Shown one piece after another: positions 158-9,231 of a stretch of 28,436 nucleotides of DNA. Source of the stretch: Acidimicrobiia bacterium (lineage in GTDB: Bacteria; Actinomycetota; Acidimicrobiia; Spongiisociales; ZC4RG35); contig DATHSX010000176.1 in assembly GCA_035463935.1 (NCBI GenBank), positions 1 through 28,436 of the forward strand, in the 5' to 3' direction. Under the pieces are notes generated by a model, which was not told the origin of the DNA, searched no databases, and saw only the letters and a list, made by a program, of their open reading frames with translations. Every line of letters begins with the position of its first letter. The stretch's first letter is position 1. Made by a program: the position numbers and the translations under genes.

Positions 158-817
158 TCAGCTCGCGTGACCGACGGAGGTGGGTACCGGTCGCACGAAG
201 TCCCGCCGGAGGCGGTCGATCTCTTCGCGGTATTCGCAGGCGTCGACGTGGTCATTGACCAAGCCCATGGCCTCCATGAACGAGTACACCGTGGTTGGCC
301 CCACAAAGGACCAGGCCCGGCGCTTCAGGTCTTTGCTCATGGCAGCCGCCTGCGGGGGTGGCGGCAGCGCGATCAGGGTGTCCCAATCGAGCCGGTCCGG
401 ACGGGACCGTTCATCAGGCTCAAATGACCAGGCGTAGGCCCCCAGGCTGCCGAACTCGTCGATCAGGTCGAGACACCGGCGGGCGTTGTTGATAGTCGCC
501 TCGACCTTCGCCCGGTTCCTGACGATGCCCCTGTCGCTCATGAGCCGCTCAACGCTGCGAGCGTTGAAGCGGGCGACCTTCTCGATATCAAACGATGCAA
601 AGGCTCGGCGGAAGTTCTCCCTTTTGCGCAGGATGGTGAGCCAACTGAGCCCCGCCTGAAAGCCCTCCAGGCTCAACTTCTCGAAGAGGACCAGGTCGTC
701 GGCGATCGGCCGACCCCACTCGGTGTCGTGATACCGCCGGTAGAGCGCGTCATCCGAACCCCAAGGGCACCGGGCGATGCCATCGTCACCGAACGCCACA
801 CCGCCGCCGGGGACCAT
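158..817 (-). CDS. tag: DNA-3-methyladenine glycosylase I (Tag family)
   Basis: Typical Tag motifs: RCPW, YHDTEWG, LFEKLSLEGFQAGLSWLTIL, GIVRNRAKV, FVGPTTVYSFMEAMGLVNDH (Zn ligands C/H...H/C). ATG at 817. Confidence 0.93.
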   Translation of the reverse strand: MVPGGGVAFGDDGIARCPWGSDDALYRRYHDTEWGRPIADDLVLFEKLSLEGFQAGLSWLTILRKRENFRRAFASFDIEKVARFNARSVERLMSDRGIVRNRAKVEATINNARRCLDLIDEFGSLGAYAWSFEPDERSRPDRLDWDTLIALPPPPQAAAMSKDLKRRAWSFVGPTTVYSFMEAMGLVNDHVDACEYREEIDRLRRDFVRPVPTSVGHAS

Positions 818-1596
818 CGAGCCAGGTTAGACGCCAGCCCCCAACCGCCCGGGCGAGGGTTGAGTGGATCGGTGGCGTTGGCCGCTTGCAGCGTGTAGCG
901 CCTCAGGTTGGCGACGTCACCCTCGGAAAGACGGTCACAAACCCAGTCCCAGTGCAGAGACACCCAGTCGCCCGGCCGAAGGCCGTGGACAAATCCGCGT
1001 CCGTTGAGCGCGACCGTTGCTTCCTCGGTACGCTCGACACCGGGGCGCACGACCCGACCATCGAATTCCAGGGCGCGACTGCGGACCAGGGCCGTTGTCC
1101 CGTTGGCGTGAACCACCCGGCCCCAGCGGATACGGCATCGATCGAGGATCGTCAGCGGCTCGGGTCCCTCATGTCCTGCCCGCAACAGGCCCGCCCACGG
1201 GTACACCGCAAAGACGTGGAAGTTGTGGTGGGGGAGGCCACCGGCCAGGGCGGCACTTCCCACATTGGACCAAAGCCTTCCCGCCCTCCGCTGGAATCCC
1301 TCGGAGAGAAATCCGGTCAACCGGACGGGATCGACCGCCTCCAGCAGGGGATTGCCGACCCAATAGGCGCGGACCACCTTCTCGGCGAGCGGGTCCGATA
1401 CGCGGTTGGCCTCGGCGATGAGACGCAGATAAGGAAACGCACCCTCGAACCGCTGCGCCAGGTCGACCAGGCCGCGATCGGCAAGCCCGGTGCTGCCGTA
1501 CTCGAGGAGGGCTCCCGAATCGGAGGGGCCGCAGTACCCGAGTTCGTTGGGCGGATAGGCGTAGCGGGCAAAGACGAGCGCGCCTGCATTGCTCAT
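673..1596 (-). CDS. DUF6390-type protein (hydrogenase-cluster associated); C-terminal part resembles HypC
   Basis: ATG at 1596 overlaps the EamA stop (ATGA). N-terminus FARYAYPPNELGYCGP, YWVGNPLL, PHHNFHVF, DRCRIRWG and GDWVSLHWDWVC match my recollection of DUF6390. The ORF-track extension to 2286 is a shadow of the EamA gene. The 3' end is uncertain because it overlaps tag by 145 bp. Confidence 0.75.
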   Translation of the reverse strand: MSNAGALVFARYAYPPNELGYCGPSDSGALLEYGSTGLADRGLVDLAQRFEGAFPYLRLIAEANRVSDPLAEKVVRAYWVGNPLLEAVDPVRLTGFLSEGFQRRAGRLWSNVGSAALAGGLPHHNFHVFAVYPWAGLLRAGHEGPEPLTILDRCRIRWGRVVHANGTTALVRSRALEFDGRVVRPGVERTEEATVALNGRGFVHGLRPGDWVSLHWDWVCDRLSEGDVANLRRYTLQAANATDPLNPRPGGWGLASNLARWSPAAVWRSVTMASPGALGVRMTRSTGGITTPSGVGRSPTTWSSSRS

Positions 1597-2534
1597 GAGA
1601 GAGCCCCCAGGCGTGACTGCCGTGCAACCCCGACCGCCACCGCGCACGTTCCAGCCAGGATCAGGGCGAGCCCCGCCCCGTTGGGAAGCACGGGCGCTCC
1701 CTGCAAGGCACCGGCCAGCCCGGCGGTTACCACGGCTCCGAATACCAGAACCGCCGTCACGTCGAGCGCCAACGCCCTGGCCAGGGCGGCGTACCACGTG
1801 CTGACAAAGGCAGCCAGGAGTCCACCGGTGAGCACCACCCAGCCCCATTGCCCGGGGGCGAGGGAGACCATGGTTCCGAGACGTCCGGTCCCCGCCACCA
1901 GCCCCAGCAACAGGACCAGGCCGAAGCCGAGACGACCGGCGCCCACCGTGGCCGATGGGAGCGAGCCGAGAAGACGCTTGGCTATGACGAACTCGATGGC
2001 CCAGAACAGGGTGGCGGCCAGGATCATCAACTCGCCCCCGCCGAACCGGAGGGTGGTCAAATCTCCGGCGAGAGCGACTTGACCCCCGACAAGCAGCAAT
2101 ACGGCTGTCACATGGAACAGAGTCAGACGCTCGCGCAGCACGGGGACGGCCAGCGCCGCTACCCACACCACCAGAGTCTTGTGGATGAAGCCGGCCTGGG
2201 TCGACGAGGCGCGGGCCAGGCCCTCGAAAAACAGTACGAAGGGCACGCTGCCGCCGATCAGGCCGAGTACCGCGAGCTGTCCCCATTGCCGGCGGGTCAG
2301 CCTGGGGGGGGCGGGCCGGCCGGATCGGCGGTGCCCGGCGACGATCACCAGCAGAAGAATCGTGGCGATGGCGTTCTTGGCCGTGGTGAAGACCGTGGCA
2401 TCGTCGAACCCTTTGACGGCATAGCCGTTGACGAACACCGAGACTCCGCTGATGGAAGCAGCCACCAAGGCGAGCACCACTCCCCAGGAACGGGAGTGCG
2501 GGATCTGCCAGCGGGCGACCTGGTAGTGGCTCAC
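1593..2534 (-). CDS. EamA/DMT superfamily transporter (about 10 TM, two repeats)
   Basis: About 10 hydrophobic segments. Motifs GGSVPFVLFFEGL, AGFIHKTLVVWV, LAVPVLRERL. GTG start overlaps the HypC stop (GTGA). Confidence 0.85.
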   Translation of the reverse strand: MSHYQVARWQIPHSRSWGVVLALVAASISGVSVFVNGYAVKGFDDATVFTTAKNAIATILLLVIVAGHRRSGRPAPPRLTRRQWGQLAVLGLIGGSVPFVLFFEGLARASSTQAGFIHKTLVVWVAALAVPVLRERLTLFHVTAVLLLVGGQVALAGDLTTLRFGGGELMILAATLFWAIEFVIAKRLLGSLPSATVGAGRLGFGLVLLLGLVAGTGRLGTMVSLAPGQWGWVVLTGGLLAAFVSTWYAALARALALDVTAVLVFGAVVTAGLAGALQGAPVLPNGAGLALILAGTCAVAVGVARQSRLGALS

Positions 2535-2770
2535 GGGACGGCTCCTTCGATGTCTGTCATCAGTTCAATGATTCGGCCTGCCTCTTGGGGGTCGATCCGT
2601 TGCACCGGTATGCCGGCGTTCAACAGAACCCAATCCCCTACCTGCGCCGGAGTGCCCTGGAAGGCAAGTACTGCGAGTGATACCCGCTGCGACCGGCCCC
2701 GCACATCCACGAAACCGGCGTTCCCGTCAGCATCGACCGCGATGACCCGGCCGGGCCGATTCATGCACAT
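2531..2770 (-). CDS. hypC: HypC/HybG/HupF family hydrogenase maturation chaperone (atypical)
   Basis: 79 aa with N-terminal MC(MNR)PGRV, VDVRG...VSL and QVGDWVLL(N)AG...RID, located in the hydrogenase operon. Confidence 0.85.
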   Translation of the reverse strand: MCMNRPGRVIAVDADGNAGFVDVRGRSQRVSLAVLAFQGTPAQVGDWVLLNAGIPVQRIDPQEAGRIIELMTDIEGAVP

Positions 2771-3231
2771 CCGCGACTCCCCTCCCCGGAGATCTCGGCC
2801 AGGATTTCTTCAGCCACGACTCTCGTCGCGGCGGCGACCTCGGGGGTAAGCCCCCCACCCGCCGCAAAAGTCGCCCCCGTGATCCCCACGACCACGAGAC
2901 GCTCCGGTAGTCGGCCCATCACCCGACCCAATTCCACCGCGTCGCCGAGGCTCAGCGAATGGGAGCTATCGCGTGCGGGACGGTCCGGCAGGGGACTATC
3001 GGTGACGTCGAACCTCTCGACCTTGCCGGGAGGACCTCCCGAACGAACGGCGTCGACCACAAAGGCGGCCTGAAATCCTGCCCAGCTTTCGAGCAGGCCA
3101 CCCGGCTCGCCGTCGTGCTCCAGCACATCGACTCCCGGCTGCGCGGCTCTGGCCACCAACCGGGCCACTTCCAGCCCGGCGGCGTCGTCTGACCGATAGG
3201 GGTTTCCTACCCCTACGACGAGGGTCTTCAT
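2761..3231 (-). CDS. Hydrogenase maturation endopeptidase (HycI/HoxW family)
   Basis: [32 protein letters not shown] motifs. Lies directly after the large subunit with an ATGA overlap. Confidence 0.93.
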
Positions 3232-4532
3232 TCGGGCACCACCTTCAGGTCAAGGAAGTGAGTGGCGCAGGAAATACAAGGGTCGTAGCTGCGGATGGCC
3301 TGCTCGCACTGGTGAGTGAGGGCATGCTGGTCTAGTTCAAGCCGGTCGGTCACGAAGTCCGCCAGATCGGCCTCGATCTGGGCCTGGTTCTGCGAGGTGG
3401 GGGGCACAATCCGGGCATCGGTGATATCACCCTGGTCATCGATCCGGTAGCGGTGGTAGAGGATGCCCCGAGGGGCCTCGGTGCAAGCATGCCCGGTGCC
3501 CGCCCGGGGTTCCACATCCACGAATGGCCGGTCTGGCGGCCGATAGCTGGCGATGATCCGCAAGGCCTGATCGCAGGCGTGCACGATTTCAACCGCCCGC
3601 ACGACGATGCTCTTGAACGGATTGCGCACGACCGGGCCGAATCCCACCCCGGCTGCGGCCTGACGCGCCAGGGGTGTCAGCTGCTCGAAGTTCAGGTTGT
3701 AGCGGGCCAGCGGCCCGGTCAAATAGGCACCCCGGCCACGGATTCGAGCGTGAAGAGCATTGGAATGCGCCACCTGCTCCTCCTCGAAGAACTGATAGAA
3801 ATCGCCTACCGCAATGTCGAGACCACGGTCCGAAACGATCCTCCCCCCCAGAAATGGATACTCGGTAGGGTGTCGAAGAGCGACGAACTCGTAGTCCTGT
3901 TCGAAGTCGGGAAAGTCGAATCCACCGACCAGCGCGACCGTGTCAAGGGCCGCCTGCCGGGCCCATTCGAGGCGATCGGCCAGTGGCTCGAGTTCGGAAC
4001 GGGTCGGGACTCGATAAAAGCCTCCCACCCGCACATTGATAGGGTGGATGGCGCGGCCCCCGATCAGGTTGAGGACGTCATTGCCGACCTTCTTGAGCTG
4101 GAGGCCCTGCTCAACGATCTGTTTGTGGTCGCGAGCCATTTCGATGGCGCTCTCGTAGCCGAGGAAGTCGGGTGCATGGAGCAGGTAGACATGAAGGGCA
4201 TGGCTCTCGATCCACTCCCCGCAATAGAGAAGATGTCTCAGCTCCCGGATGGGTCCCTCGACCGTGACGCCGCACGCATCCTCAATCGCCTGACAGGCAC
4301 TCATCTGATAGGCCACAGGGCAGATTCCGCAGATTCGAGCGGTAATGTCAGGGGGTTCGGTGTACTTCCGCCCTCGCAGGAACGCTTCGAAGAAACGCGG
4401 CGGCTCATAGATGCGGAGTTGGACCTGGGTGACCTTCCCGTCCCGGGTGCGAACGACCATGCCTCCTTCGCCTTCGACCCTGGCAAGGGTGTCCACCCTG
4501 AGGGTGCGGGCACCCGTCGCTTTGTGAGTCAC
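3228..4532 (-). CDS. Group 3b [NiFe]-hydrogenase (sulfhydrogenase-type) large/alpha subunit
   Basis: LARVEGEG N-terminus, L1 motif [11 protein letters not shown]2 motif DPCISCATH followed by a cleavable tail FLDLKVVPE. True start is GTG at 4532 overlapping the delta stop; the ORF-track start at 5042 is an extension. Confidence 0.95.
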
Positions 4533-5311
4533 GGGATTCTCTCGCTTTCCTGCCGAAAGGCCTCGGCGCCGGTGTTGAAGGTCCGATAGATCCGTCGAAG
4601 GTCGGGGGGCCCCATCCCCAGGCCCGCCAACCAGCCGGTCAGCGAGGGAGCATTGGCGGTGTCTGCCGGGCCGAAGCACCCGTAGCATCCTCGGGAGTAG
4701 GTCGGGCAGAGCGCCCCGCAGCCGTTTTGGGTGACGGGGCCCAGGCACGGGGTTCCGTGAGCGACCATCACGCAGACATTTCCCCGGCGCTTGCACTCCA
4801 CACACACGCTGTAGGTAGCAATGTTGGGCCTGCGACGAGCCAGGAAGGCGGACAGCACCTCTAGGAGTTGGTGGCGGTCGATCGGACACCCCCGCAACTC
4901 GAAGTCGACGGGAACGTGATCGGCGATGCCCGTCGAGTTGTCCAGTGTGGAGATGAACTCCGGATGGGCGTAAACCACATCGATGAACTCGCGGACATTC
5001 GCGAAGTTGCGCAACGCCTGAATGCCCCCCGATGTCGCGCACGCTCCGATCGTCACGAGCACCCGGGAACGTCCCCTTACCAGGCGGATCCTTTCCACGT
5101 CGTCTGGGGTGCTGATCGATCCCTCAACCAGCGACACGTCATAAGGGCCTCGTATCACTGCCCGGGAGGCCTCGGGGAAGTAGGCGATCTCCACCTCGTC
5201 GGCGAGCGTGAGCAACTCGTCCTCACAGTCGAGAACGGTGAGCTGACAGCCGTCGCACGAGGAGAACTTCCAGACGGCGAGCTTCGGTTTGGCCCGCCCG
5301 GACTCTGCCAT
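4529..5311 (-). CDS. Group 3b hydrogenase small/delta subunit
   Basis: [43 protein letters not shown]...RGCYGCFGP. No Tat signal. ATG at 5311 in a TGATG overlap with the gamma stop. Confidence 0.93.
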
Positions 5312-6180
5312 CACACCTCCCGAATCGACATCAGGCGTTCCACCCGCTGGTAGGGGAAAACCGGTCCGGCCATGCAAACGAAGTCCGGGCCAAACTGGCA
5401 GTGACCACAGTGACCGATGGCGCACTTCATGTTCCGTTCCATCGACACCCGCACCCGATCTCGCGGGATGCCCCGGTCCAGCAGCGCCCTGGCGGCAAAG
5501 CGGATCATCACCTCGGGCCCACAGATGAAGGCCGTCGCCTCCTCCGGTCGGAAGGCGACGGGGGGAATGAGCTCGGTGACTACCCCTACATGGCCATGCC
5601 AGTCCGGACCGGCGTGGTCGACGGTTACCTCCACCTCCATATCGAGGTGGCTCCGCCACGACCCGATCTCTCTTTGGAAGATCAAGTCCTTCGGCGATCT
5701 GGCACCAATCAGAACCGCCACCTGCCCGAATCGACTTCGCTCGGCCATGATCCGGTAGATGGCGGGGCGAAGGGGCGCCAGCCCGATACCGCCGGCGACC
5801 ACAACCAGATCGTTTCCAGCGGCGGCCTCGACCTGCCAGTCCGAGCCGAAAGGCCCGCGCACTCCGACCACGTCCCCCTCCCGCAACCCGCATAGGGCCC
5901 TGCTCACGGCTCCGACCGACCGGACGGTATGAATCAGCGGGCCTGCGGCTGGATCGCCGCTGATCGAGATCGGGACTTCACCCACGCCGAACGCGTAGAG
6001 CATGTTGAACTGGCCGGGTCGGTACGCCATCGGCGCGCCGTCGACAGGATCGAGGGCGAAGGTGTAGGTGTCGGCGGTTTCGCGCCTCTTCCAGCTCACC
6101 CGGTAGCGAAGGGGAACCATCGGCCGCCCAGGCGCCGGGACGGGTGAGAGGTGAACATCAGCCAGCACGACCGCCGCCAT
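5311..6180 (-). CDS. Group 3b hydrogenase gamma subunit (FAD/NAD(P)-binding, 2Fe-2S)
   Basis: [60 protein letters not shown] motifs. Start position approximate. Confidence 0.93.
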
Positions 6181-6631
6181 ACAGATCGATCAAGCGGAGC
6201 CGCGCCGACTCCAGCCTTTCTACGAGTATCTCCGCAAACCGCTTCATCAACTGGTAACCCAGCCGTGTGTCCTCCTCACACTTGTCCCGTAGACAGGCCC
6301 CGTCCAGAGCCACTACTCCGACTGGTTCCAGGGCGCGGGCATCGAACTGCCACCGATAAGGGGGAAACAGCCACGAGGCTCCGACGACGTCGGCTTCACC
6401 GGCAGTGTCGATCACCAGCGAGCCCCGGGCGGGCAGATGCACCTCAATGGCCACCCGGCCCCGACGAACGATGAAGAAGAGGTCGGCCGGATCCCCCTCC
6501 CGACACAGATAGTCACCCGTTTCGAAGACCATGTTCTTTCCGCATCCGGCGACCAGTTCCAGGTAACCGGGATCGAGGTCTTTGAAGAACGGATGGGTCC
6601 GAAGCAACTGGTCGATCGTTTCAAGGGACAT
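6158..6631 (-). CDS. Stand-alone cyclic-nucleotide-binding (Crp-type sensor) domain protein without an HTH
   Basis: [39 protein letters not shown]. 157 aa. AAGGAGG RBS before the ATG at 6631. Confidence 0.85.
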
Positions 6632-7757
6632 TGGCAACCTCCTTGCTGGAGCGGGATGGGGCCCGGAGGCCCTCGACCTCCTCGGTGAGATCAATGCCTA
6701 CCGGGCACCAGGTGATACACCGGCCACAACCCACACAGCCCGAAGTGCCGAACTGATCGATCCAGGTTGCGAGCTTGTGGGTGAGCCACTGCCGGTATCG
6801 CGACCTGGTGGAGGAGCGGACGTTGCCTCCGCCCAGGTATGAGAACTCGAGGCTGAAGCAAGAATCCCAGGTCCGCCACCGCTCGGCGATCGTCCCGGTG
6901 AGATCGCTGGTGTCCTCGACCGTGCTGCAAAAGCACGTGGGGCACACCATCGTGCAGTTGGCGCAGGTCAGACAGCGCCGGGCCACCTCATCCCAACGCG
7001 AGTGCTCGTAGCTGCCGTAGAAGAGGTCTTTGATCCCCCCGGTGTCCAGAGCCCTGCCCATGTGGGCCGCAGCCCATTCGATCACAGCATCCGCTCTTCT
7101 CCGATCCTCCGGCTGGTCGGGCCGCTGCGGCACCTCGGCCAGAATCTCCCCGCCCCGGGGCGAGCCGATCTCCACCAGGAATTCGTGCCGGTTGTCGCTC
7201 ATCAGTTCGGTGAGGGAAAGGTCGAATCCCGGCCCGGCCCGGGGTCCGGTTCCCATGGAGACGCAAAAACAGGTGCCGGCCGGGCTCCCGCAATTGACGG
7301 CGATCACAAATGCCCGCTGGCGGCTGCTGGAGTAGGTGGGGTCCGCGAACGACCCACCGGCAAAGACCAGGTCCTGAATCGCGATGGCCGCCAGCTCACA
7401 TCCCCTTACTCCAAGGAAGGCATACGGCCCCGACGCTTCTGGTCCGGCCTCGATCCCGAATCCTTCCTCTGTGCGACGACCCCGCCACAGCAGCGTTCGA
7501 GAAGGGAACAGGTACTTCTTCCACGATTGGGGACCGACGCCGTACCCGAACAGGGCCTGGTCACTCCTGGGCCGGAGCCGGTAGGTCCCCCCGTCCTGCT
7601 CATCGGTCCATCCTTTGGGGAGATCGACCACCGAGGTGACCTGGTCGTAGACGATTGCGCCCTCGCGAACCGTCGGGCCGACGACCAGATAGCCGCGTTG
7701 GCGGAGCACGCCGATGAGGGTGTCCAGCCCGGATCGGTCGATTACGGCGGTGCGCAT
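6621..7757 (-). CDS. Group 3b hydrogenase beta subunit (4Fe-4S dicluster, AsrA/HydB-like)
   Basis: GVRGCEL, VNC...[45 protein letters not shown]. Confidence 0.93.
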
Positions 7758-7766
7758 TACTTCCGT

Positions 7767-9155
7767 TCACCCACTGACTGGCTCGAACCGTGCCTGGAAG
7801 AACCGCAACTCGGGGGGCTCGTAGGTGAAACGGAGACCTTCGATCCGGTCACGCTGCTCGTAGACCGCGCTGACCGATTCGGCGACCACGTCCATGTGGG
7901 CCTGCGTGTAGACCCGCCGGGGAATTGCCAGGCGCACCAGCTCCAGCCGCGGATAGTGGTTCTCGCCGGTCTGTGGGTCCCGACCGGCCGAGACCACCCC
8001 CCGTTCCATGCCTCGCACTCCGCTGTCGACATAGAGGGCGGCGGCCAGTGCCTGGGCCGGCAACAGGGGTTGGGGGATGTGCTCGAGTATGGCCCGGGCG
8101 TCGAGGAAGACGCCGTGACCACCGATGGGGCGAACGACCGGGATCCCGGCTTTGATCAGATTGTGGCCGAGGTATTCGACCTGGCCGATCCGGGCGGAGA
8201 CGTGATCGTCGGTCTCGACCATCTCCCTGATACCCACCGCCAGGGCCGCCATGTCGCGACCCGACATGCCCCCGTACGTGTGCAGTCCCTCGAACGCCAC
8301 CAGCAGGGCTCGAGCCTGGCGGGCCAGATCACCGTCTCGCAAAGCCAGGAAGCCGCCGATGTTCACCAGATTGTCCTTCTTGGAGGAGACTGTGGCGCCG
8401 TCGGAGTACGAGCAGATCTCCCGCAACAACGAAGCCACGCTGCGATCGTGATAAGGCGCTTCCCGCTGTTTGATGAACCAGGCATTCTCGAGAGCTCGGG
8501 TGGCGTCGAGCATCACCAGAATCTGATGCCGCCGGCAGAGGTCGTAAACCGCCCGGAGGTTGGCCATCGACATGGGCTGGCCACCGGCCATATTCACATT
8601 GGTCTCGACCGAGATGTAGGGGATCCGCTCGGGCCCGTGCTGGTCGATGACCGCTTGCAGCTTGGCGAGGTCGATGTTGCCTTTGAAAGGATGATCCGAG
8701 TAGGGATCGTGGGCCTCGTCGATGATGACATCCACGAAGTTGCCACCCGCGTACTCCTGATGGAACTTGGTGGTCGTGAAGTACATGTTGCCGGGGATGA
8801 CGTCGCCCGGCTTGATGAGGATCTGGCTCAAGATGTGCTCGGCGCCCCTGCCCTGGTGGGTGGGAATCAGCTCCTCGTACCCGTACACCTCCCGCATCGC
8901 CTCCTCGAGTTCGTAATACGAGCGGCTCCCCGCATAGGCCTCATCACCCATCATCAGCGCCGACCATTGCCGATCGGACATGGCCGATGTACCTGAGTCG
9001 GTCAGCAGATCTATGTAGACATCGACCGATCGGAGGAGAAAGGTGTTGTACCCGGCCTCGACGATGGCCCTCTTCCGCTCGCCCGGCGACAACATGCGGA
9101 TGGGTTCCACCATCTTGACCTTCCAGGGCTCGGCCCAACTGCGGTGGCCTTCCAT
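7767..9155 (-). CDS. tpl: Tyrosine phenol-lyase (PLP beta-eliminating lyase)
   Basis: Collinear with enterobacterial TPL: EAGYNTFLL, DLLTDSG, GDEAYAG (catalytic Tyr), THQGRGAE, NMYFTTT, SKKD (PLP Lys), IPRRVY. It has GMERG (TPL-specific Arg) and LRFF (Phe where tryptophanase has His). AAGGAG RBS before the ATG at 9155. Confidence 0.88.
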   Translation of the reverse strand: MEGHRSWAEPWKVKMVEPIRMLSPGERKRAIVEAGYNTFLLRSVDVYIDLLTDSGTSAMSDRQWSALMMGDEAYAGSRSYYELEEAMREVYGYEELIPTHQGRGAEHILSQILIKPGDVIPGNMYFTTTKFHQEYAGGNFVDVIIDEAHDPYSDHPFKGNIDLAKLQAVIDQHGPERIPYISVETNVNMAGGQPMSMANLRAVYDLCRRHQILVMLDATRALENAWFIKQREAPYHDRSVASLLREICSYSDGATVSSKKDNLVNIGGFLALRDGDLARQARALLVAFEGLHTYGGMSGRDMAALAVGIREMVETDDHVSARIGQVEYLGHNLIKAGIPVVRPIGGHGVFLDARAILEHIPQPLLPAQALAAALYVDSGVRGMERGVVSAGRDPQTGENHYPRLELVRLAIPRRVYTQAHMDVVAESVSAVYEQRDRIEGLRFTYEPPELRFFQARFEPVSG

Positions 9156-9185
9156 CTTCTGGCTCCTTCTGACGCTCCAGGTGAC

Positions 9186-9231
9186 ATCGTGTCCGGGAGG
9201 CTGCGAACGGCCCAGGGCCGATGGTCCCACC
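9186..9231 (-). promoter_or_regulatory. Candidate DosR/DevR-like box (GGTGGGACCATCGGCCCTGG, 9231-9212) with a possible -10 (CACGAT, 9191-9186)
   Basis: Core GGGAC-N4-GNCCC matches the mycobacterial DevR box. It is centred about 42 nt upstream of the start site implied by the weak -10, in front of the tpl-hydrogenase unit. Confidence 0.5.

Follow-up and report, generated by a model that had tools for sequence, protein, structure and literature searches.

A HypC-related domain in DUF6390, a two-domain companion of actinobacterial [NiFe]-hydrogenases and candidate maturation factor

How is a [NiFe]-hydrogenase matured in a genome in which HypD, HypE and HypF are not found, and what does a small protein of the family DUF6390, encoded at the end of its operon, contribute? 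According to a current review (PMC12134894), no [NiFe]-hydrogenase obtains its NiFe(CN)2CO cofactor without the six Hyp proteins (HypABCDEF). The question is raised by a contig of an Acidimicrobiia metagenome-assembled genome (MAG; contig DATHSX010000176.1 of assembly GCA_035463935.1), all 28,436 nucleotides (nt) of which are here called the window. Its DUF6390 gene occupies 673..1596 on the minus strand, with an ATG at 1596, a stop codon at 673-675 and an open reading frame (ORF) that translates into 307 amino acids (aa). The product is a member of its family: PF19927 (DUF6390) matches residues 2-242 at E 2.3e-86 and 289.7 bits against a gathering cut-off of 25, covering positions 2-237 of the 244 in the Pfam profile. 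NCBIfam has no model for DUF6390. The original prediction, made from the letters of this DNA, had proposed that the protein joins a novel domain to an internal HypC-like domain in which a Cys and a His are retained, forming a scaffold for metal-cofactor handling in hydrogenase maturation. Its residue numbering agrees with the translation of the minus-strand ORF, the relevant codons being those of Cys22 (1533-1531), Cys154 (1137-1135), His215 (954-952) and Cys220 (939-937), to which His124 (1225-1227) and His127 (1216-1218) can be added. The span that it gave for the HypC-like part, 880-1137, was accurate to one codon, residues 154-238 corresponding to 1137-883.

The rear half of the protein, residues 154-242 (871..1137, minus strand), was assigned by structure and profile comparison to the HypC/HupF-derived domains with an oligonucleotide/oligosaccharide-binding (OB) fold. 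An AlphaFold2 (AF2) model built from an alignment of 88 diverse full-length DUF6390 members has a mean predicted local distance difference test score (pLDDT) of 96.1 and a predicted template modelling score of 0.93, and lays out the chain as helices over residues 4-154, five to six strands between 157 and 223, and a last helix at 225-242. In this model, residues 157-242 form the OB barrel and C-terminal helix by which the HypC/HupF fold is recognized. When compared with the PDB by Foldseek, ranks 1-6 are all HypC (2z1c, 3vyr, 3vys, 3vyt and 3vyu; E 3.7e-3 to 2e-2, 25-28% identity), and generic OB folds come after. VIA-align, with a target set of 48,161 representative chains, places HypC 2z1c_A first (Z 6.0, root-mean-square deviation 1.8 Å, 71/71 HypC residues aligned with model residues 152-242) and E. 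coli HypC 2ot2 second (Z 4.7), with OB folds of the RPA and ribosomal types at Z <= 4.5. A profile of the 88 C-terminal domains finds HypC on top among PDB sequences, with HypC making up four of the six matches (2z1c E 0.0019, 3vyr E 0.0024). The same domains align by hhalign with 23 HypC sequences at a probability of 89% and E 2.4e-6, and with a second HypC set at 92.6% and E 4.6e-7, while the front domain, serving as a negative control, reaches 0.1% against HypC. Both hhalign runs pair Cys154 with HypC Cys2 and His215 with the column of HypC His51. Taken singly, 29 of the 88 C-terminal domains match HupF_HypC (PF01455) at E <= 1, the best at 3.5e-5, and any other Pfam family is matched by at most four of them. 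The C-terminal domain of the window protein by itself has no PF01455 match at E <= 0.1 and no TIGR00074 match, falling short of the curated cut-offs for HypC/HupF. Since HypC comes first in four comparisons, yet the window domain alone misses PF01455, the homology is real but distant: judged from sequence and model, residues 154-242 are a diverged HypC/HupF OB-fold domain.

The surroundings of the two hallmark residues of HypC are kept to different degrees in this domain. His215 follows G-D-W-V-S-L, matching the HypC/HupF arrangement in which E. coli His51 follows G-D-[WY]-V-L. The HypC/HupF cysteine occupies position 2 of an N-terminal M-C-[LIV]-[GA]-[LIV]-P, whereas Cys154 is preceded by Arg153, opens the motif C-R-I-R-W-G and lies at the end of the helix 145-154 in the AF2 model. 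An internal translation start, or a Met ahead of Cys154, is ruled out by the Arg153 in the sequence. The caveat that accompanied the original prediction, that HypC needs its Cys at a free N-terminus and this one is internal, thus stands, so that the free N-terminus on which HypC relies is not available to this domain. In terms of its sequence, the rear domain of DUF6390 is in the HypC superfamily by descent; two defining features of a canonical HypC, the Met-Cys motif at the N-terminus and a profile score over the curated cut-off, are missing, and the protein is therefore not counted as one.

The front half is a different matter. It consists of an all-helical N-terminal domain, residues 1-153 (1138..1596, minus strand), delineated from AF2 models and conservation, that is modelled with a pLDDT of 90.8 alone and of 96 at full length. 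A profile search of PDB sequences with it (hmmsearch) gave no match. Its best VIA-align hits are carrier-protein-like helical bundles at Z 4.7, under the noise level for helical folds, and its best Foldseek E is only 5.5. Neither by sequence nor by fold did the front domain match a HypD chain of the PDB, an outcome with which a distant relation would be compatible, and a single-sequence PDB search with the whole protein returned only a chance 17-residue match. The predicted front domain is thus a confident helical fold without a convincing PDB match. Near-invariant within it are Asn17, Cys22, Phe50, Tyr56, Trp79, His124 and His127. Among the 88 aligned members, Cys22, His124 and Cys154 are each kept in 87, His127 in 82, His215 in all 88, Trp216 in 87 and Cys220 in 82, and the Cys/His/Trp set is intact in 17/17 copies extracted from genomes, with or without HypD in the genome. 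The original prediction had named two checks, a fold or profile comparison of the rear half with HypC and the conservation of Cys22, Cys154, His215 and Cys220. Both were run: the first gave an OB barrel and C-terminal helix with HypC on top, by structure as well as by profile, and the second the counts just listed, in which the Cys and His of the HypC-like domain are retained. Because neither refuted it, the proposed architecture of a novel domain plus a HypC-like OB fold can be taken as shown.

The distribution of DUF6390 links it to hydrogenases, often in genomes in which several of the Hyp proteins were not found. Two samples of Actinomycetota were searched, one across the phylum (401 genomes) and one of the class (301 genomes). 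In the phylum sample, DUF6390 occurs in 19 genomes, HypC in 218 and HypD in 209; all 19 DUF6390 genomes contain HypC, and eight of them, the window MAG among these, give no HypD match. Conversely, 8 of the 11 genomes of this sample that are HypC-positive and HypD-negative carry DUF6390, the three others comprising two with marginal HypC scores and one that is 92% complete. In the class sample, DUF6390 is present in 40 genomes and HypD in 30, with both in only two (G601, G665); a [NiFe] large subunit is present in 37/37 newly found DUF6390 genomes, and neither HypD nor HypF was found in 35 of these 37. Across the pooled samples, 43 of 56 DUF6390 genomes, including the window MAG, have no HypD and no HypF over the cut-off. 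HypE exceeded the cut-off in none of the eight HypD-negative genomes tested (the window MAG and seven of the phylum sample), and HypD, HypE and HypF are all present in the control genomes G190, G393 and G178. In the window MAG itself (G000; 86.75% complete, 533 contigs), HypD, HypE, HypF, HypA and HypB were not found. These tallies include unpublished genomes, one of which (G148) is positive for DUF6390, HypC and HypD, and four of which (G018, G048, G120 and G239) enter the HypC and HypD counts only; the sequences of these five genomes were left aside. Every DUF6390 genome tested for a large subunit has one, including 47/47 tested in addition to the first set. The 11 large subunits inspected, eight of them from genomes without a HypD found (window, G116, G009, G140, G346, G017, G067 and G371), all bear R-x-C-G-x-C and D-P-C-x-x-C-x-x-H, with the four cysteines that bind the metals, together with a C-terminal extension. 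A maturation protease is likewise present with them. DUF6390 is thereby shown to be found only in genomes with a [NiFe]-hydrogenase and HypC, usually beside them. As for the hydrogenase-maturation scaffold of the original prediction, its link to hydrogenase maturation is borne out by synteny and co-occurrence, while its metal or cofactor binding can only be inferred.

In the window, the DUF6390 gene is the last of a run of ten on the minus strand. The first in transcription order encodes a tyrosine phenol-lyase-like lyase (7767-9230), followed by genes, identified with Pfam, for a 4Fe-4S beta subunit (6621-7757), a small cyclic-nucleotide (cNMP)-binding protein (6158-6694), an FAD/NAD gamma subunit (5311-6180) and the hydrogenase small subunit (4529-5311). 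Then come the large subunit of group 3b type (3228..4532, 434 aa from a GTG at 4532, PF00374), which has both cysteine pairs (RICGIC and DPCISC..H) and a short C-terminal extension, and a HycI-type large-subunit maturation protease (2761..3231, PF01750 E 8.6e-11). A stand-alone HypC of 79 aa with a Met-Cys start (2531..2770, PF01455 E 1.6e-15) and an EamA/DMT-family permease of 313 aa (1593..2534, PF00892 E 3.4e-25) lead up to DUF6390. From the small subunit through DUF6390, adjoining genes overlap by GTGA, ATGA or 10 nt. The EamA gene is coupled translationally on both flanks, by GTGA and ATGA overlaps, the DUF6390 ATG overlapping the EamA stop as ATGA. By its sequence, then, the locus is a translationally coupled operon of group 3b type, closed by DUF6390. 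The cNMP-binding gene is kept at the same place, between the beta and gamma subunits, on contigs L069 and L071. The stand-alone HypC of the window has Asn (L-L-N-A-G) at the usual His51; the same position is Asn on contig L069 and Ser in G140, and the His is kept in G346, G067 and G371. In genomes without a HypD found, the usual start M-C-L-G-I-P of the stand-alone HypC is likewise degenerate or relaxed, and a word-based homologue search with the window HypC returned two proteins only. At its far end, the DUF6390 gene runs on past the family domain, at whose end (residue 242) the Pfam match stops, into a lineage-specific C-terminal tail, residues 243-307 (676..870, minus strand). This tail of 65 residues is absent from the nearest homologues, which end at 250-256 aa, those at 78% identity stopping at 256 aa. 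The final 145 nt of the ORF (673-817) overlap, in another frame, the start of the downstream ORF for Tag, 3-methyladenine glycosylase I (158-817; PF03352, E 3e-68). Going by the sequence, the tail is probably a mere late stop in GC-rich DNA, an out-of-frame reading of the start of Tag.

Elsewhere, DUF6390 keeps similar company. Metagenomic contigs L069/L070 and L071 show the same succession of genes, beginning with the beta subunit and ending with DUF6390; the stretch of large subunit, protease, EamA and DUF6390, usually with HypC, recurs in G140, G346 and G371; and EamA adjoins DUF6390 also in loci L058, L059, L063, L064, L069 and L071. In the closed genome G067, a HypC-EamA-DUF6390 set lies upstream of a HoxF/U/Y/H-like (group 3d-like) operon. 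In G009 and G116, DUF6390 belongs to a 1h-like cluster with a large subunit of ~600-660 aa, a NifU-Rieske protein, DUF5947 and DUF6084, HypA being close by in both and HypB in G009 only. In G178 and L075, it is part of a canonical hyp operon, where it directly follows hypC-hypD or hypE, the true gene order in L075 being hypF-hypC-hypD-hypE-DUF6390. As a rule, DUF6390 and the large subunit are encoded 3-11 kb apart within one contig. Because the neighbours vary among 3b, 3d-like, 1h-like and canonical hyp clusters, the family must be seen as serving more than a single class of hydrogenase, or at least as accompanying more than one. Two side observations concern these clusters. In 1h-like clusters, a protein of 450-486 aa without a Pfam family is flanked by DUF6084 on one side and by the protease or HypC on the other (L057:11884-13341 in G009; L075:4028-5380), one of the genomes being without a HypDEF found. 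At L075:6053-8566, a HupF_HypC domain precedes a full HypF in a reading frame of 837 aa, which is either a real HypC-HypF fusion or a frameshift artefact.

What most of the contexts share, beyond the hydrogenase, is a transporter. One or more solute transporter genes adjoin DUF6390 in 13 of the 18 contexts with sufficient flank. The transporter is EamA in the window, G140, G346, G067, G371, L069 and L071, and is fused to DUF6390 in P0218/L074. An Fbp-like ATP-binding cassette (ABC) system, with SBP_bac_11, a double permease and an ATPase bearing TOBE_2, is co-directional with DUF6390 in G190, G338 and G017 and convergent in G116. A Nik/Opp-like ABC system (SBP_bac_5) lies directly downstream in G349, and an ABC system of FecCD type is found in G009. 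That DUF6390 is importer-coupled, and that it is retained in genomes searched in vain for HypD, HypE and HypF, goes beyond what the original prediction contained. In G017 (L062:7176-9496), a PadR regulator and two P-loop NTPases resembling CbiA/ParA/CooC are encoded directly upstream of DUF6390, and the Fbp-like importer overlaps its 3′ end.

The reading preferred here, held tentatively and at slightly less than even chances, is that DUF6390, with its two domains, assists the maturation of [NiFe]-hydrogenase as an accessory protein, namely an importer-coupled metal or cofactor chaperone with one metal site and a cargo relay to HypC and the large subunit. The conserved Cys and His residues of both domains would together make up this one site. 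In the cytoplasm, DUF6390 would receive what the importer brings in, which is most likely either iron or a precursor of the cofactor that contains it, hold this cargo on the HypC-like domain, and hand it to the neighbouring HypC, from which it would pass to the large subunit. Where HypD, HypE and HypF are not found, DUF6390 would take the usual place of the HypC-HypD scaffold. A more far-reaching proposal, possible though somewhat doubtful, is that HypC, the permease and DUF6390 constitute a route to the [NiFe] site independent of HypD, HypE and HypF, with DUF6390 as the iron-holding scaffold or receiver; the ligand set of the Fe would then be made by unknown chemistry, or an iron-containing precursor imported. 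In a complex prediction, DUF6390 with the neighbouring HypC scored 0.60 and the control 0.52, which speaks neither for nor against such a pairing.

Several points weigh against this preferred reading. Metal or ligand binding by DUF6390, and the clustering of its Cys and His residues in space, are predictions. Its chemistry cannot be identical to that of HypC, because Cys154 is internal and the cysteine of HypC works only from the free N-terminus. The source of the cyanide and CO ligands without HypE and HypF is left unexplained by these data. Thirteen genomes have DUF6390 alongside all of HypCDEF, so that it is no simple replacement for HypD. Most of the genomes are draft MAGs, relatives among them are not independent, and 'not found' refers to the genomes searched; near-closed members of the set are G067, in one contig, and G504 and G413, in two. 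Lastly, the importers are of several kinds, such that nickel instead of iron could be the cargo, and family members fused to a helix-turn-helix (HTH) domain hint at a sensing role.

The first of the last two points leads to the best surviving alternative, which is nonetheless unlikely: that DUF6390 is a nickel chaperone, taking over Ni(II) from the importer next to it and supplying the large subunit in place of, or in aid of, HypA and HypB, with no handling of the iron cofactor. Nickel transporters are common in hydrogenase operons. A site rich in Cys and His would suit nickel, as would the Nik/Opp-type importer directly downstream of DUF6390 in one context and the FecCD type in another. Like the window MAG, G067, G371, G346 and G140 yielded neither HypA nor HypB. 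By fold, however, the protein resembles HypC, an iron chaperone, rather than HypA, HypB or SlyD, and in canonical clusters DUF6390 comes after hypC, hypD and hypE rather than hypAB. Moreover, the adjacent ABC systems are mostly of the Fbp (ferric iron-like) type, and HypA, HypB and DUF6390 occur together in G009 and G178.

The second point bears on a sensor or regulator, in which the domain pair would bind a metal or cofactor intermediate and report its availability, gating EamA or, in HTH-fused forms, controlling transcription, with no transfer of cargo. This is decidedly unlikely, and what speaks for it is mainly a set of fusions. PadR-DUF6390 (P0166 and P0190, two distinct clusters) and XRE-DUF6390 (P0244) look genuine, a DUF6390-MarR fusion (P0129) is uncertain, and at least two HTH-fused proteins adjoin HypC (loci L072 and L073); a separate PadR gene lies upstream of DUF6390 in G017. 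Their sequences suggest that some DUF6390 members act as ligand-sensing transcription factors. The fused forms, however, are a small minority. The word-based search for DUF6390 returned 4,208 proteins at E <= 1e-5, and an exhaustive search 1,274 cluster representatives (50% identity) at E <= 1e-3, called 'hypothetical' or 'DUF6390 family protein' wherever their sources name them. The carriers are actinobacterial MAGs of Acidimicrobiia, Pseudonocardiaceae, Streptosporangiaceae, Gaiellaceae and Egibacteraceae, and most of the proteins are ~250 aa long and stand alone. The window protein has no DNA-binding domain, and its tight translational coupling to structural and maturation genes better fits a stoichiometric helper. 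Not all fusions in public protein sets are to be taken at face value. The HypE-DUF6390 'fusions' P0279, P0280, P0282 and P0284 are frameshift artefacts, the C-terminus of HypE (P-R-I-C) in L075 lying in another frame. P0277, P0278 and P0281, apparent fusions with EamA, are probably so too, containing Arg-rich stretches of 100-200 residues that align to nothing; only P0218 is an apparently genuine EamA-DUF6390 case. Such false HypE and EamA fusions arise from frameshifts in GC-rich assemblies at gene overlaps of 4 nt (L075:10001-11752). Further apparent fusions are NiFeSe_Hases-DUF6390 (P0276) and GDSL-DUF6390 (P0274).

An improbable third alternative is a holdase that, in the manner of HupF or HoxL, would bind and protect the unfinished large subunit, for instance from oxygen, without supplying cofactor. 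Such roles are established for HypC paralogues (HupF, PMC3534401; HoxL with HoxV, PMC12134894), and many carriers of DUF6390 are actinobacteria that live aerobically and possess hydrogenases of oxygen-tolerant types (1h-like clusters). A HypC paralogue usually serves one particular enzyme, however, and this family accompanies very different large subunits (3b, 3d-like, 1h-like and classical group 1); a holdase would also leave unexplained the recurrent importer neighbours and the extra conserved Cys and His of the front domain. That the resemblance to HypC is a generic OB-fold similarity, with neither common descent nor shared function, is barely credible: the miss of PF01455 by the window domain, the modest Foldseek E (only 4e-3 to 2e-2) and the other OB folds following at Z <= 4.5 speak for it, but HypC comes first by four independent methods, its entire 71-residue chain, down to the C-terminal helix, superposes at 1.8 Å, the Cys and the His fall into the same columns, PF01455 is matched by 29/88 members, and the gene resides in hydrogenase and hyp clusters.

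What is at stake can be stated briefly. The word 'DUF6390' has no occurrence in the literature searched, nor was a description found there of hyp-less hydrogenases or HypC-like fusions of this kind; a study of the Candidate Phyla Radiation by Jaffe et al. noted near such hydrogenases only a HypC-like family and 'unknown genes' (PMC7304191). In 43 sampled genomes without HypD and HypF found, DUF6390 is a constant companion of the hydrogenases. If these enzymes are active, their cofactor would be assembled by an undescribed route, or would be a different one. Should the HypDEF-independent route hold true, HypABCDEF could no longer be regarded as indispensable to all [NiFe]-hydrogenases, and DUF6390 and the permease are the obvious candidates to test for alternative cofactor assembly. 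Even if maturation here proves conventional, a widespread family (about 1,270 clusters at 50% identity) would be named as a hydrogenase maturation factor, with the residues to mutate given.

The closest known relatives of the rear domain are HypC, HybG, HupF and HoxL (PF01455, TIGR00074; 2z1c, 3vyr-3vyu, 2ot2 and 3d3r). Like them, it has an OB barrel followed by a C-terminal helix, a Cys just ahead of strand 1 and a His after GD-x-V in identical alignment columns, and it is encoded within hydrogenase and hyp gene clusters. Unlike them, it has its Cys at an internal residue, 154, with no Met before it, where HypC has it at the free N-terminus, and C-R-I-R-W-G in place of MC[LIV][GA][LIV]P. It has also gained a β-hairpin insertion of ~20 residues (about 172-195) and a conserved Cys220 after the histidine, in an H-W-D-W-V-C patch. 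It is fused behind a helical domain of 150 residues, and it persists where HypD, the obligatory partner of HypC, is not found. A second comparison is with the HypC-HypD scaffold, in which Fe(CN)2CO is assembled at HypC Cys2 and HypD Cys41 (PMC12134894). Here too, two modules each bring a conserved Cys next to the HypC-type His, in DUF6390 within one chain. The front domain, in contrast to HypD, is all-helical, with no Rossmann fold and no 4Fe-4S cysteine motif, and matched no HypD chain in the PDB comparisons; any scaffold role of DUF6390 is putative. HupK and HoxV, finally, the intermediate scaffolds of oxygen-tolerant hydrogenases, resemble DUF6390 in being additional maturation proteins of particular lineages, and are thought to keep the iron moiety on its way from HypCD to the large subunit; these, however, are homologues of the large subunit that need HypCDEF upstream, whereas DUF6390 is HypC-derived.

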